Source: Escherichia coli
GTDB lineage: Bacteria > Pseudomonadota > Gammaproteobacteria > Enterobacterales > Enterobacteriaceae
Strand: one strand, 5' to 3'
Length of the DNA stretch: 64,000 nt
Assembly (NCBI RefSeq): GCF_003334815.1
Contig: NZ_QOWO01000007.1
The notes under the pieces: generated by a model
What the model was told of the DNA's origin: nothing
The model's input: the letters and a program-made list of their open reading frames with translations, nothing else
Database searches by the model: none
Program-made: the position numbers and the translations under genes
Shown: positions 57,691-64,000 of the stretch, piece by piece
Position numbering within the stretch: the stretch's first letter is position 1
Layout: each line of letters begins with the position of its first letter

Positions 57691-57714
57691 CTTTTTTAAT
57701 GGCATGGAGTGCAT

Positions 57715-60021
57715 ATGTTTAAGGCCAGGAATTGCGGCTGGATACGTTTACTGCCCCTGTTTATGCTGAGTCTACCAGTACAGGCGGAACTTCGATGTGT
57801 TGCAAATGCAGTTGATATTGAATCATTTTTTTCTGCGGCTACCGCTGAAGATAAACAACAAGTTGAACAAGCTATCAACAGTAGCGTGAATCTTGTCCCC
57901 TTCGGTTTATCTGCATCGAACTGGAAAGTGCATCGTGGCGATTTAGTGGTAGAAGGTAATATAGAGAGTAATCAAAAATTGATTGTTCTTGGGAATTTGA
58001 CAGTCAAAGGTAATATTTCCACTTTCTCTCTTTCTAATCCATGGGTTATTCTCGGTAACGTGACGGCAACGAATATAGTTGCGGATTCACCACTGTTAAT
58101 TACCGGTTCGATAAATGCAAGTGGACTGGTATTTATCGACTCATATTACGATAATCCGTCTACGATTAAGGGGAGTATTAATGCGCGTGGGATATTTATC
58201 AATGACATAATTGCACCTGTTGTTGCGTCTTCGACAAATAGTGAATTCATGGTCCGTGCGAGTGACAAACATGACACTGAAAATGTCAAAAAAGCGCTGA
58301 TGATAATAAATCCTGATGCATATTATTGGGGGCTAATTAATGATGAAGATGCTCTGAAAGAAATTTTTAAGCGAAGCAATATTCGCATGGCAGGGAATGT
58401 CTGTAATCAGATGAAAAAAGAAGCGCTGTTTCGCCCTAAGCCTTCTCCTGAGTTAGTGCAAGAATTGCAAATGCTGGATGAAGGCAAAGTTGCTGCATTT
58501 GAAGGACGAGACATTGCGACATTTGATCTTGCCGTAATGCGAACTCTCCCAAGGCTTAAAGGAATTTCAGCTAACCTACGCAAACAACTTATTAATAGCA
58601 ATGATGAACAAACGATTGAAAGTATGGCGAGATATATGCCTGACAATGAGATTCTGGAGTTGACCGATCAGCAATTGGGTTACCAGCCTGTTGTTCTGGG
58701 GTTGCTCGACCGTGAACCGCTCTCTGTCGAAATAATGACGCGAATGAGTCGTCTACCTGATGGTGTCGGTCCGTTGAATCTTGCGCTACGTGAAAATCTC
58801 CCTCTGGATATCGTCATGACTCTGGCGAAAAGAGATTGGGATATGATCATTCAGGAGCTTTATAAAGATGCGTGGTTATTGCCTGAATCCATTATTGATG
58901 GCTATATCCGCAGTGATGATTCCTCTATTCGTCAGGTCGGTGCTGGAGGACAACTCACCTACAATCAGGCAATGCAGTTGGCGAACGATTCATCAAACAA
59001 TGTTGTCACAAGCTTAGCGTTCAAGCTGGCAGAGATGAAACACCATGGTCAATTGTTGCGGATGACGCCACAAGAGAGTGACAAAGTTGCAGGCTATTTA
59101 TACCAAAAATTCGAGAATGACGATGATCTAATACGTGTGTTATTTTTAGCATTGCCAGATAACTTACAGTTTAATTTTGTTAAAAGGATGGAGAAAAAAT
59201 CCCCGGCCTACTTTTGCTGTCGGGATATGCAGGTAATTCACTCTGACGCTGCTTTACAACGGTTATTGACACGTTTCAACGATCCTGAAGGGTGGAGTAA
59301 TCTGGCGAAAAATCAGTATCTGAGCACGTCGATGAAACAAAAAATTTGGCAACGTGCTTTATCGCATCGGAAAAATAATCCGAAAGCAGATTCAGATGCA
59401 TATGAAACCAGCGCTGATATGATTTTGTCTGAGCTGATTAGCCACGGCGAAGTTGATGACCAGATGCTATTAAATGCCACCGCCCTGATACGTTCGGACG
59501 ACTGGGACTTTTTAGAGAGTGCATTAATTAGTTGGGATAATTTACCCGCTGTTGTTCTCAAGGAATTACAGCAAAACACGCCACGCAATGATATTTGGGC
59601 GAAGTTTTTTCTGAGGCAGGAAAACAGTTCCCGTGCGCAGGTTGACGAAGCGTTACGTGTTTATTATGCACTAGACCCCGATGCGTTAGCACAACTGGAT
59701 GTACTGGCAAAACAACCGGATCGTATATGGTGGAGTACACTGGCGAAAAGCAATCTCACATTTTTCAAGTTCGGCGCACTTAACAACCGCCACACACCGC
59801 CTGCAGTACTGGCGGCAGAAATTGATCCCGAGTGGTGGATTGTGGCGATGAATAATCCCCGTTTTCCAGTTGATGTATTAAAGGCGAGGCTGAAACGTGA
59901 TCCTTTGCTGGCGTTAGAGCTTGTTAACCCTGAACTGGATTTAGTCCGCCAGCTGGCGCTTAACGGTAAGACGCGCGCAATACGGGAACAAGCGATGAGA
60001 AAACTTGATGAGTTGTATTGA
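57715..60021 (+). CDS. ydbD: large protein of unknown function with signal peptide
   Basis: ORF track 57709..60021; start at MFKARNCGW (768 aa); no catalytic motif recognised; AT-rich by eye. Confidence 0.85.
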   Translation: MFKARNCGWIRLLPLFMLSLPVQAELRCVANAVDIESFFSAATAEDKQQVEQAINSSVNLVPFGLSASNWKVHRGDLVVEGNIESNQKLIVLGNLTVKGNISTFSLSNPWVILGNVTATNIVADSPLLITGSINASGLVFIDSYYDNPSTIKGSINARGIFINDIIAPVVASSTNSEFMVRASDKHDTENVKKALMIINPDAYYWGLINDEDALKEIFKRSNIRMAGNVCNQMKKEALFRPKPSPELVQELQMLDEGKVAAFEGRDIATFDLAVMRTLPRLKGISANLRKQLINSNDEQTIESMARYMPDNEILELTDQQLGYQPVVLGLLDREPLSVEIMTRMSRLPDGVGPLNLALRENLPLDIVMTLAKRDWDMIIQELYKDAWLLPESIIDGYIRSDDSSIRQVGAGGQLTYNQAMQLANDSSNNVVTSLAFKLAEMKHHGQLLRMTPQESDKVAGYLYQKFENDDDLIRVLFLALPDNLQFNFVKRMEKKSPAYFCCRDMQVIHSDAALQRLLTRFNDPEGWSNLAKNQYLSTSMKQKIWQRALSHRKNNPKADSDAYETSADMILSELISHGEVDDQMLLNATALIRSDDWDFLESALISWDNLPAVVLKELQQNTPRNDIWAKFFLRQENSSRAQVDEALRVYYALDPDALAQLDVLAKQPDRIWWSTLAKSNLTFFKFGALNNRHTPPAVLAAEIDPEWWIVAMNNPRFPVDVLKARLKRDPLLALELVNPELDLVRQLALNGKTRAIREQAMRKLDELY

Positions 60022-60191
60022 TCCACAACGTAATGTTTTTTAACTATCTGATTAATTGGGGATAATCATTCCTGACAGTGAGTCCCCAATACCTTGATAT
60101 ATTCTGAATTTTTAATGAAACGGCGTGTTGCGATATCTCCGTCAGGGGAATTGATGCACCATAGCGCAAACCGAATTATCAAGGATTGATA

Positions 60192-61693: not shown

Positions 61694-61708
61694 AGGAAAA
61701 TAGAGAAA

Positions 61709-63463
61709 ATGGAAAATTCACGCATCCCTGGGGAACATTTTTTACCACCAGTGATAATACAGCGTTGTTTTATCGGCACTGGCCCGCTTTACAGCCCGGG
61801 GCGAAAAAGGTCATCGTCTTATTTCATCGCGGGCATGAACATTCTGGTCGTCTACAACATCTCGTTGATGAACTGGCGATGCCAGATACTGCTTTTTATG
61901 CCTGGGATGCCCGAGGGCATGGAAAAAGTTCGGGGCCGCGTGGTTATAGCCCATCTCTTGCGCGTTCAGTGCGGGATGTCGATGAATTTGTCCGTTTTGC
62001 TGCCAGCGACAGCCAGGTTGGACTGGAAGAGGTGGTAGTGATCGCGCAAAGCGTCGGCGCAGTGCTGGTTGCCACATGGATTCATGATTATGCACCTGCA
62101 ATTCGCGGGCTGGTGCTGGCTTCTCCGGCCTTTAAGGTTAAATTGTATGTGCCGCTGGCACGTCCTGCGCTGGCGTTATGGCATCGTCTGCGTGGTCTGT
62201 TTTTTATTAATTCCTATGTGAAAGGACGCTATTTGACCCACGATCGGCAACGGGGGGCGAGTTTCAATAATGATCCGCTGATCACACGGGCGATTGCCGT
62301 TAATATCTTGCTCGATCTCTACAAAACGTCTGAACGTATTATTAGAGATGCGGCGGCGATTACGCTCCCCACGCAACTTCTGATATCAGGCGATGACTAT
62401 GTGGTGCATCGCCAACCGCAGATTGATTTTTATCAGAGATTACGTAGCCCTCTGAAAGAGCTGCATCTGCTGCCAGGCTTTTATCACGACACGTTGGGTG
62501 AAGAGAACAGGGCGCTGGCATTTGAAAAAATGCAAAGCTTTATTAGTCGTTTATATGCTAACAAATCGCAAAAATTTGATTATCAGCATGAAGACTGCAC
62601 AGGACCATCAGCGGATCGATGGCGGCTACTTTCTGGTGGACCCGTGCCATTATCGCCGGTTGATTTAGCGTATCGCTTTATGCGAAAGGCGATGAAATTG
62701 TTCGGGACGCACTCTTCGGGCCTGCATCTCGGAATGAGCACCGGCTTTGATTCAGGCAGTTCGCTGGATTATGTCTATCAAAATCAACCGCAAGGTAGTA
62801 ACGCATTCGGGCGTTTAGTCGACAATCTACCTGAACAGTGTTGGCTGGCGCGGTATTCGCCAGCGCAAAACCCATTTACAAATACTGATTAAACAAGCCG
62901 TTGCCGATCTCCACGCCAAAGGTTTAGCCGTCCGCGTGGTTGACATTGCCGCAGGGCATGGGCGCTATGTACTGGATGCGCTGGCAAACGAGCCTGCCGT
63001 AAGCGATATTTTGTTACGTGATTACAGCGAGTTAAATGTTGCACAGGGGCAAGAGATGATTGCTCAACGGGGAATGTCTGGGCGGGTGCGTTTTGAACAG
63101 GGCGATGCGTTTAACCCGGAGGAACTCAGCGCGTTAACTCCGCGGCCTACGCTGGCGATTGTCTCTGGCCTGTATGAGCTTTTTCCCGAAAATGAGCAGG
63201 TAAAAAACTCACTCGCAGGTCTTGCCAATGCCATCGAACCGGGCGGCATTCTCATCTACACCGGGCAGCCGTGGCACCCTCAACTGGAGATGATTGCCGG
63301 GGTGTTAACCAGTCATAAAGATGGTAAACCGTGGGTAATGCGCGTGCGTTCGCAAGGGGAGATGGATTCACTCGTGCGTGATGCCGGATTTGATAAATGC
63401 ACACAACGGATTGATGAGTGGGGTATTTTTACGGTTTCGATGGCGGTGCGTCGTGATAACTGA
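61709..63463 (+). pseudogene. ynbC: alpha/beta hydrolase (lysophospholipase-like) fused to SAM methyltransferase-like domain; reading frame broken twice in this sequence
   Basis: ATG 61709 (frame 2) then hydrolase ORF 61765..62892 (frame 1: HRGHEHSGR, AQSVGA) then methyltransferase-like ORF 62936..63463 (frame 2: VVDIAAGHGRYVLD); no single ORF spans the domains. Confidence 0.55.
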
Positions 63464-64000
63464 ACGTCGGAACGTATTGCTACAAGGCGCTGGCTGGTTA
63501 TTGTTGCTGGCCCCGTTTTTCTTCTTCACCTATGGATCTCTTAATCAGTTCACCGCGGTTCAGGACCTTAACAGCCATGATATCCCCAGTCAGGTATTCG
63601 GTTGGGAAACGGCGATCCCTTTTCTTCCCTGGACTATTGTTCCTTACTGGAGTCTGGATCTTTTATATGGATTTTCGCTGTTCGTTTGTAGCACGACATT
63701 CGAACAGCGCCGACTTGTCCACCGGCTTATTCTGGCAACGGTAATGGCCTGCTGCGGTTTTTTGCTCTATCCGCTGAAGTTTAGTTTTATCCGTCCTGAA
63801 GTGAGTGGGGTGACGGGATGGCTATTTTCGCAACTTGAACTGTTTGATCTGCCTTATAACCAGTCTCCTTCGCTGCATATTATTCTCTGCTGGCTACTTT
63901 GGCGTCACTTTCGTCAGCATCTGGCTGAGAGGTGGCGTAAAGTCTGCGGCGGATGGTTTTTACTCATCGCCATTTCGACGCTGACGACCTGGCAGCATCA
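63453..64000 (+). CDS. ynbD: polytopic membrane protein, possibly PAP2-like phosphatase; N-terminal part, runs off window end
   Basis: GTG at 63453 overlapping upstream stop; hand translation [29 protein letters not shown]... open to window end. Confidence 0.55.

Follow-up and report, generated by a model that had tools for sequence, protein, structure and literature searches.

The Escherichia coli ynbABCD operon as a reduced version of a widespread six-gene cassette, with two frameshifts in ynbC of one strain

We analyzed a stretch of 64,000 nucleotides of Escherichia coli DNA (contig NZ_QOWO01000007.1 of RefSeq assembly GCF_003334815.1; hereafter the window), focusing on positions 57709-64000, where the list of open reading frames (ORFs) gives five genes, all on the plus strand, that correspond to the standard E. 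coli ydbD, ynbA, ynbB, ynbC and ynbD locus. The region is 100% identical to E. coli chromosomes on which ynbA-D are annotated by RefSeq. There, YdbD is named a DUF2773 bactofilin-like protein, YnbA a member of the CDP-alcohol (cytidine-diphosphate-alcohol) phosphatidyltransferase family, YnbB a phosphatidate cytidylyltransferase, YnbC a bifunctional alpha/beta hydrolase / class I S-adenosylmethionine (SAM) methyltransferase and YnbD a PAP2 / dual-specificity phosphatase. The locus is the known, annotated ynbABCD operon, with one partly characterized member, YnbB, besides a broken ynbC. On the 5' side of ydbD lie pdxI (ydbC), an intact ORF for the autotransporter YdbA and the paa genes.

The first gene, ydbD, occupies positions 57715-60021; its ORF can also be read from 57709, the RefSeq start being the ATG at 57715. 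A spacer of 170 nt (60022-60191; 38% guanine plus cytosine, GC) separates it from ynbA (60192-60797, 201 aa), which is followed by the cdsA paralogue ynbB (60797-61693, 298 aa), both being intact here. After a gap of 15 nt comes ynbC (61709-63463), a probable pseudogene in this window, whose intact form codes for an alpha/beta hydrolase resembling monoacylglycerol lipases, with a Methyltransf_20 domain fused to it. Only the 5' part of ynbD is covered (63453-64000, residues 1-182 of 438), since the window ends within its C3-like motif TTWQHH. The start/stop overlaps described in an earlier reading made from the letters alone (the sequence-only reading) are indeed present: one base at 60797 is common to the TAA of ynbA and the ATG of ynbB, and ynbD, starting with the GTG at 63453, overlaps the end of ynbC (TGA, 63461-63463) by 11 nt. 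The ynbD start chosen by RefSeq varies by genome, being either this overlapping GTG or a TTG located 14 nt 3' of the ynbC stop. As ynbC/ynbD overlaps of 4 or 11 nt recur in Salmonella bongori, Serratia and Snodgrassella, translational coupling within the ynb genes is plausible. In E. coli, 53 nt separate ynbD from azoR. Searching the region for non-coding RNA gave no Rfam match.

The same earlier reading considered the operon to be partly inactivated in this strain, and two frameshifts in ynbC agree with that. Aligned with E. coli strain M217 over 57709-64000 (6292 bases), the window showed no substitution and three missing bases, which make up two events, both in ynbC; once one T and two A are put back, the DNA is identical to ynbC of M217. 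The first lesion (61738-61743), a run of six T where other E. coli have seven, causes a -1 shift after codon 11, so that the frame opened by the ynbC ATG stops at 62036-62038 after 109 aa. The second lesion (62824-62825), AA where other E. coli have AAAA, shifts the frame by -2 at codon K373, which belongs to the methyltransferase cap, and leads to a stop at 62890-62892. Compensation of the -1 shift by the -2 shift was ruled out by the stop at 62038 in the intermediate frame. Two fragments remain. The first (61765-62892, 375 codons), whose sole start is an internal TTG, holds reference residues ~20-372 in the correct frame and a 22-aa out-of-frame tail, that is the whole hydrolase domain with S115/D230/H260 and the methyltransferase cap. 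The second (62936-63463, 175 codons, from V411) holds the Rossmann core with DIAAGHGRY, devoid of the conserved N-terminal cap. The Methyltransf_20 frame is broken in the window, its cap (275-372) and its core (411-585) standing on different ORFs.

Both frameshifts are length changes in mononucleotide runs, and they could be sequencing or assembly errors, or handling artefacts, in a strain whose ynbC is intact. Speaking for this, not one complete E. coli genome out of 4473 has the -2 (AA) allele, and the flanking 6.3 kb has no substitution compared to M217 or K-12-type sequences. A generally error-prone assembly was nevertheless ruled out as the source: the rest of the window has no indel over 46.8 kb compared to M217 and none outside ynbC over its last 12.3 kb (the ynbD stretch not differing at all), and over the ~59 kb aligned, 72 homopolymer runs of at least 6 bases, 15 of them of at least 7, were unchanged. 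Moreover, homopolymer errors do not typically remove two bases from a run as short as four, and the T6 allele exists in nature, in ~4-5 of 3692 complete E. coli genomes, including strain CFSAN061770, where RefSeq labels it "frameshifted". That both lesions fall in one gene is explained if the second was neutral once the gene was dead. We therefore regard an artefact as improbable, while taking it seriously, and ynbC as probably a real double-hit pseudogene on the strength of these comparisons. The window thereby adds a strain-specific ynbC allele, of use mainly as a natural ynbC-null. As for ydbD, it was counted by the sequence-only reading as a member of the operon, and it is adjacent to ynbA, on the same strand and comparably AT-rich. 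This membership was not borne out. The 170-nt spacer parts ydbD from ynbA and has its own mapped promoter, activated by BglJ-RcsB via a binding site that was mutagenized (PMC3950696); our simple scans of the spacer for sigma-70 promoters and terminators gave no match. In strain LF82, pdxI is directly followed by ynbA, ydbD being absent and ynbABCD kept. Among the complete E. coli genomes (5426), ynbABCD is covered to at least 80% in 4268, and ydbD and ynbABCD together to at least 80% in 3754, so that in ~500 genomes ynbABCD persists while most of ydbD is gone. No ydbD homologue stands beside the cassette described below in ~85 loci of other genera, and ydbD is not linked to ynb genes in Snodgrassella, Vibrio, S. 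bongori or Serratia. With placement in the ynb operon ruled out by the spacer promoter, the LF82 layout and the missing linkage in other genera, a single functional unit comprising ydbD and ynbABCD is hardly credible, and ydbD is an independently variable neighbour outside the ynb unit. Its product matches DUF2773 in Pfam (2.3e-45), and weakly Bactofilin (0.05), and has a signal-peptide-like N-terminus.

We then looked at the four ynb proteins. The CDP-alcohol phosphatidyltransferase-like nature ascribed to YnbA holds for the domain, recovered with Pfam (CDP-OH_P_transf PF01066, i-E 1.6e-9, model positions 3-148 of 152), and fails for the signature, which is non-canonical (NxxDGxxAR..GxxxNxxxD). 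Its relatives in PDB are phosphatidylinositol-phosphate (PIP) synthases, choline/ethanolamine phosphotransferases and PssA, the best being the mycobacterial PIP synthase 6h5a. Compared to NCBIfam models, YnbA scores 75.1 bits as archaetidylinositol-phosphate synthase (cut-off 180), 47.3 as PIP synthase (170) and 31 as pgsA (109). The canonical motif of the family (PMC9246714), which 6h5a also has, contains four Asp (DxxDGxxAR...GxxxDxxxD). YnbA reads N69xxD72GxxAR...G86xxxN90ExxD94xxxD98, with Asn at the D1 and D3 positions in 82/82 homologues, while D2, D4 and the G, A and R residues are invariant. Given such strict conservation of the variant motif, we read YnbA as a distinct catalytic subclass and not as a dead enzyme.

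YnbB fits its predicted CDP-diglyceride-synthase signature well. Pfam recovered CTP_transf_1 (PF01148, 1.4e-69) over model positions 2-263 of 264, with the KDSGKLLPGHGGLLDRIDSL motif, and the cytidylyltransferase signature (K-R...K-D...G-H-G-G-x-x-D-R-x-D) is invariant in 67-68 of 68 homologues. The block had been called one of unknown product, which stays correct for the operon and no longer for YnbB, published as a CdsA paralogue that backs up the synthesis of the glycolipid MPIase (PMC6362211, PMC7018664). According to the summary in PMC7018664 of Sato et al. 2019, YnbB makes CDP-diacylglycerol (CDP-DAG) in vitro. Its overproduction raises MPIase and, in cdsA-depleted cells, restores MPIase and not bulk phospholipid; a cdsA knockout is not complemented by YnbB (PMC6362211, PMC7018664), and a ynbB knockout alone has no MPIase defect (PMC6362211). 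Both ynbB and cdsA are cold-induced (PMC6362211, PMC7018664, PMC11413397, PMC11448367 and a 2026 preprint). YnbB thus resembles CdsA, which serves the compound I step of MPIase synthesis, in its full CTP_transf_1 domain, signature, CDP-DAG synthesis and support of MPIase. It differs from CdsA in being homologous over the C-terminal half only (110 bits against a cut-off of 385 on the NCBIfam CdsA equivalog, residues 160-291) and in being no substitute for bulk phospholipid synthesis.

The proposed fusion of a serine hydrolase to a SAM-methyltransferase was recovered in intact YnbC as Hydrolase_4 (PF12146, 1.5e-67, residues 32-266) and Methyltransf_20 (PF12147, 1e-152, 275-582). The catalytic triad S115 (AQSVG), D230 and H260 is invariant in 85/85 homologues. 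Residues 18-274 align with monoacylglycerol lipases (E 1e-14), Hydrolase_4 proteins such as Rv0183 of Mycobacterium tuberculosis and human MGLL, which resemble YnbC in full-length alignment and in the Ser-Asp-His triad; unlike them, the YnbC hydrolase is always fused to Methyltransf_20 and at times also to YnbA. The methyltransferase half, modelled with a predicted local distance difference test (pLDDT) score of 94, has a Rossmann fold with conserved SAM loop DIAAGHGRY, D439 and D467. We tried to deduce the methyltransferase substrate from the fold and gave this up, the good model having only generic matches. In published screens, ynbC appears with a polyphosphate-linked phenotype in one background.

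YnbD had been described as a polytopic membrane protein, with PAP2 among the domains to be searched for, and its AlphaFold model (pLDDT 93) is indeed polytopic, with a PAP2-superfamily membrane domain and a C-terminal dual-specificity phosphatase. The latter is clear in Pfam (DSPc PF00782, 2.7e-27) and the former marginal (PAP2_3 1.3e-4, PAP2 1.7e-4); among the YnbD homologues that we looked up, the precomputed Pfam lists PAP2_3 for one only, weakly. For the cysteine phosphatase, which lies outside the window, profile and fold agree with the family, and the P-loop C384-x5-R390 and the general-acid D354 are invariant. In the membrane domain, the C2-like S140-x-H142 and C3-like S175...H182-x3-D186 are kept in 75-76 of 76 homologues (as is H183), while the C1 motif KxxxxxxRP is absent and replaced by (R/H/Q/K)109-F-x-F-x-(R/Q)114-P115, with another spacing and R114 in 63/76. 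Counting the model helices back from the cytoplasmic phosphatase, and considering the R/K-rich loop at 201-218, we infer that the His/His/Asp site faces the periplasm. As modelled, the membrane domain is most like sphingomyelin and inositol phosphorylceramide (IPC) synthases. YnbD has its fold and C2/C3-like residues in common with PAP2 transferases (sphingomyelin synthase-related protein, AUR1) and phosphatases (PgpB, LpxE, LpxT), and it differs from the superfamily by its marginal Pfam scores, by the non-conserved Lys/Arg of C1 and by its fusion to a cytoplasmic CX5R phosphatase, a combination found in no known member. It was published as a fourth putative PAP2 protein with "no function yet ascribed"; when overexpressed, it complemented neither the phosphatidylglycerophosphate (PGP)-phosphatase (pgpA pgpB pgpC) nor the undecaprenyl-pyrophosphate (C55-PP)-phosphatase conditional strains, so that, unlike PAP2 phosphatases, it shows no such activity in vivo (PMC7413402). 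Screens list ynbD as a fitness candidate in uropathogenic E. coli and in connection with glycogen.

By comparing genomes, we found that these genes recur together in other bacteria, as the sequence-only reading had suggested checking, and that the E. coli operon lacks two of the six genes of a larger cassette, which that reading had missed. For this, distant YnbC homologues served to build a 12-sequence alignment with which one genome per species was scanned (a 40-sequence alignment was too diverse for patterns). More than 491 stretches encode a YnbC relative, of which 80 loci were kept, from Enterobacterales, Neisseriales, Burkholderiales, Rhodocyclales, Pseudomonas, Shewanella and one Bradyrhizobium; gene content was determined by ORF calling, BLAST and iterated hidden Markov models, and genes were counted in the 68 loci with enough flank. 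The conserved unit, on one strand, consists of ynbC with ynbA (67/68 loci), ynbD (64/68), a small membrane protein of ~130-150 aa (62/68), ynbB (60/68) and a PlsC-like acyltransferase with an HX4D motif (58/68). Two main gene orders were observed, A-B-AT-C-D-Sm (the enteric type; AT, acyltransferase; Sm, small protein) and A-C-D-Sm-AT-B; in Proteus, Providencia, Xenorhabdus and Morganella, the locus is limited to A-C-D-Sm. The A-B-C-D arrangement was seen in E. coli alone: here, as in the window, the acyltransferase and the small protein are missing. All six genes stand at the equivalent site in S. bongori, between ydbL and azoR-hrpA. Sequence comparison thus showed that the E. coli operon is a four-gene remnant of a cassette of six genes shared by Gamma- and Betaproteobacteria, two of which, those for the acyltransferase and the small protein, have been lost in E. 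coli. By these counts, YnbA, YnbC and YnbD form the specialized core, whereas YnbB and the acyltransferase, which duplicate CdsA and PlsC, have the look of optional enzymes of supply.

The acyltransferase (PlsC/Aas-like, between ynbB and ynbC) and the small gene 3' of ynbD can be seen, for example, at 7370-8026 and 11052-11456 of locus L009 and at 9364-10008 and 13026-13433 of locus L003. HX4D is invariant among the acyltransferase homologues; the small membrane protein matched no Pfam or NCBIfam family and has invariant R66, D70 and R106. Natural single-chain YnbA-YnbC fusions exist (P0123, 807 aa; P0150, 927 aa; P0244, 656 aa) and argue that YnbA and YnbC act on the same molecule. When 748 neighbouring ORFs were clustered, no further neighbour family was common across lineages, only lineage-specific synteny being found. 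Candidates for a linked head-group-precursor gene proved to be a chemoreceptor, ParE and a second PlsC-like gene. An anti-phage defence role was dropped after the six S. bongori cassette proteins gave no match to PADLOC defence-system models. We also noticed that Citrobacter sp. Cu233 has a second, degenerate cassette (L025: truncated ynbA, acyltransferase fragment, split ynbD) beside an intact one (L014) in the same genome, that a Citrobacter-like YnbC, sharing only 75-76% identity with the usual allele, occurs in some records labelled E. coli, and that one E. coli protein of 889 aa has YnbB and YnbC domains fused.

The block including ydbD had been judged by eye to be AT-richer than the neighbouring paa genes, with a hint at an old horizontal origin. 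Windowed calculation gave 46.2% GC for the ydbD-ynb block versus 53.1% for paaA-paaY, a difference that holds for ydbD (43.4%), the spacer, ynbA (46.5%) and ynbB (43.6%) and not for ynbC (50-53% in its fragments) or ynbD (49%). The cassette sits at an equal chromosomal site in S. bongori and Citrobacter and hence is old there, but low GC spans only half of the block, so that the proposed origin finds mixed support. Near-identical cassettes are present in Snodgrassella and Vibrio, the Vibrio copy beside a resolvase, and these copies show that the cassette does move. In Vibrio fluvialis (L005, 8000-13430), YnbC is 76-77% identical to that of E. coli, ynbB is truncated (132 aa) and the cassette lies directly 3' of the resolvase gene, an arrangement that suggests recent mobility.

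Taking domain families and the activity of YnbB (PMC7018664) together, a pathway around a CDP-activated lipid head group, as first proposed from the letters, is supported in outline. We propose, with belief and doubt in about equal measure, that the intact ynb cassette is an accessory, normally little-expressed CDP-DAG head-group pathway. The acyltransferase and YnbB would supply a dedicated phosphatidate and CDP-DAG pool, from which YnbA, PIP-synthase-like with an altered metal site, would hand the phosphatidyl group on, at the cytoplasmic face, to an acceptor that is phosphorylated or carries a phosphate. This intermediate would be trimmed by the Cys-phosphatase domain of YnbD, likewise cytoplasmic, in parallel to PTPMT1 and the Bacteroides PIP phosphatase, and the periplasm-facing sphingomyelin/IPC-synthase-like domain of YnbD would transfer or cleave the phospho-head group. 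Finally, YnbC would tailor the lipid by deacylation and SAM-dependent methylation. In the window strain, the two ynbC frameshifts would block such a pathway at YnbC; with translation ending 560 nt short of the ynbD start, ynbD is probably also expressed less.

The closest characterized parallel is offered by mycobacterial PgsA1 (6h5a) and by the Bacteroides thetaiotaomicron cluster BT_1522-1526, in which genes for PIP synthase, PIP phosphatase and an AUR1-like IPC synthase stand together (PMC9246714) with one for the inositol-phosphate synthase MIPS. Its three lipid-handling activities are matched in the cassette by a transferase, a lipid-type phosphatase and an AUR1/sphingomyelin synthase (SMS)-like domain. 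The ynb cassette differs from this phosphatidylinositol route in having no linked inositol-phosphate synthase, in a YnbA far under the equivalog cut-off (75 vs 180 bits) with Asn at D1 and D3, in a CX5R phosphatase where that of Bacteroides is PgpA-like, and in its additional lipase-methyltransferase, CdsA paralogue, acyltransferase and small protein. To our knowledge, E. coli makes no ceramide acceptor. Phosphatidylglycerol synthesis (PgsA with PgpA/B/C; PTPMT1) follows the same logic, from CDP-DAG to a phosphatidyl-X-phosphate that is then dephosphorylated, and differs from the cassette by the weak pgsA score of YnbA and by the failure of YnbD to complement pgpA pgpB pgpC.

Several points weigh against the head-group pathway. 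YnbA lies below every equivalog cut-off, as does YnbA of S. bongori, and with two of the four signature Asp gone, its donor and chemistry may depart from the family norm. The fold neighbours of the methyltransferase are generic small-molecule methyltransferases, the top one being the uncharacterized Bordetella 3ocj, and give no substrate clue. The topology of YnbD is deduced from model helices and charge bias, and its non-complementation makes the simplest version of the idea, a second phosphatidylglycerol route, unlikely. The E. coli version may work only partly, given the two missing cassette genes and the frequent insertion-sequence (IS), deletion and frameshift alleles, and the frameshifts in the window may themselves be errors of the source assembly, as discussed above. 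Searches of the full-text literature, which agree that the product of the operon is not established, found no reported lipid product and nothing on the biochemistry of YnbA or YnbC, only the YnbB/MPIase work, BglJ-RcsB, the PgpB paper and screens; nor did the loci show a head-group-precursor gene, for example for inositol-phosphate synthase, linked to the cassette.

Two other explanations compete with this pathway. The E. coli block could be a functionless evolutionary relic, the broken ynbC being one further step of decay. This would fit the loss of two of six genes, the published normal growth of knockouts, and the natural alleles that we encountered (insertions of IS1, IS3 and IS903 into ydbD or ynbA, the T6 frameshift and a ynbA'-'ynbC deletion). 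Within E. coli (K-12-type, LF82 and O157), the ratio of nonsynonymous to synonymous substitution rates (dN/dS) is 0.08-0.43 for ynbA-D versus 0.03-0.05 for azoR and pdxI, that is 2- to 10-fold higher. Such values still correspond to purifying selection, however, and constraint on ynbA-D seems relaxed yet clearly present. Catalytic residues, invariant across 66-85 homologues, are all intact in the E. coli reference, most genomes keep at least 80% of ynbABCD, the operon has a dedicated BglJ-RcsB-activated promoter, and the housekeeping PlsC could stand in for the lost acyltransferase. Thus, we consider a pure relic quite unlikely. Slightly better placed, although still unlikely in our view, is a role of the operon in MPIase synthesis, in which YnbB, perhaps with YnbA, would form GlcNAc-PP-diacylglycerol from CDP-DAG and N-acetylglucosamine (GlcNAc)-1-phosphate as a backup of CdsA, helped by the other genes. 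The overproduction and cdsA-depletion phenotypes and the shared cold induction speak for it, and the two Asp-to-Asn changes might in principle let a transferase of the CDP-alcohol type use a phosphate nucleophile. It is contradicted by the normal MPIase of the ynbB knockout, by the 814 of the 5426 complete E. coli genomes that are devoid of the locus and by a literature in which no paper was found to examine YnbA, YnbC or YnbD in connection with MPIase. Moreover, YnbB is dispensable, as shown by its counts and the A-C-D-Sm loci, and cassettes are frequent in Pseudomonas, Variovorax, Cupriavidus and Zoogloea. MPIase has a glycan of the enterobacterial-common-antigen type, an antigen confined to Enterobacterales. 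A role in MPIase synthesis thus fits YnbB and fits the whole cassette poorly, as many cassettes do without YnbB and cassettes are frequent in bacteria beyond Enterobacterales.

Returning to the head-group pathway, we can draw a bolder and tentative picture, which we think improbable in its full extent. The cassette would encode an undescribed pathway working on both faces of the inner membrane. YnbA, as a new catalytic subclass of CDP-alcohol phosphotransferases (NxxDG...NxxxD where others have DxxDG...DxxxD), would build an unusual phosphatidyl- or pyrophosphate-linked head group on the cytoplasmic side, possibly with a sugar-phosphate such as GlcNAc-1-phosphate as acceptor, and would then be a missing enzyme of the route to DAG-pyrophosphate glycolipids of the MPIase type; the cytoplasmic CX5R domain of YnbD would edit this lipid and the periplasm-facing SMS/AUR1-like domain transfer the head group to an envelope acceptor, while YnbC would methylate and deacylate and the sixth protein, which has no Pfam family, assist, for example by flipping. 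If true, this would amount to a new membrane lipid or envelope modification found across Proteobacteria.

What the window itself brings is ordinary, a named E. coli operon with one strain-specific broken gene. The comparison is more useful: it sets ydbD apart, it shows the actual unit to be a cassette of six genes, found in ~490 or more species-level genomes, and it points to YnbA, YnbC and YnbD as the invariant core, not to the studied YnbB. It also exposes two testable oddities, namely the Asn residues that replace Asp in the active site of YnbA and the fusion, in YnbD, of an SMS/AUR1-like domain with a Cys-phosphatase. The product, once found, would fill one of the few gaps left in the E. 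coli inventory of phospholipid enzymes, and would test whether the link between YnbB and MPIase reflects the true role of the operon.

Some further observations were made on the locus and its surroundings. In a recurrent deletion allele, ynbB is gone and the beginning of ynbA runs into the central part of ynbC (E. coli NT1F34, L008 2593-4257; hits H92 and H93), and 5 of 4627 matching places for the ynb region are on records labelled plasmid. GC content dips sharply, to 40-42%, at 50000-51500 of the window, where the paaY-ydbA spacer leads into ydbA and its 5' end, which is below the values of any part of the ynb block. An IS3 element of ~1.26 kb, situated between paaY and ydbA in M217, is absent from the window (~50928-50931). 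In K-12, ydbA is interrupted by IS elements. In the window, ydbA (50816-56584) is one intact autotransporter ORF of 1922 codons with internal repeats of ~370 bp (self-matches of 88-97% identity), and these repeats hold most of the substitutions compared to M217.

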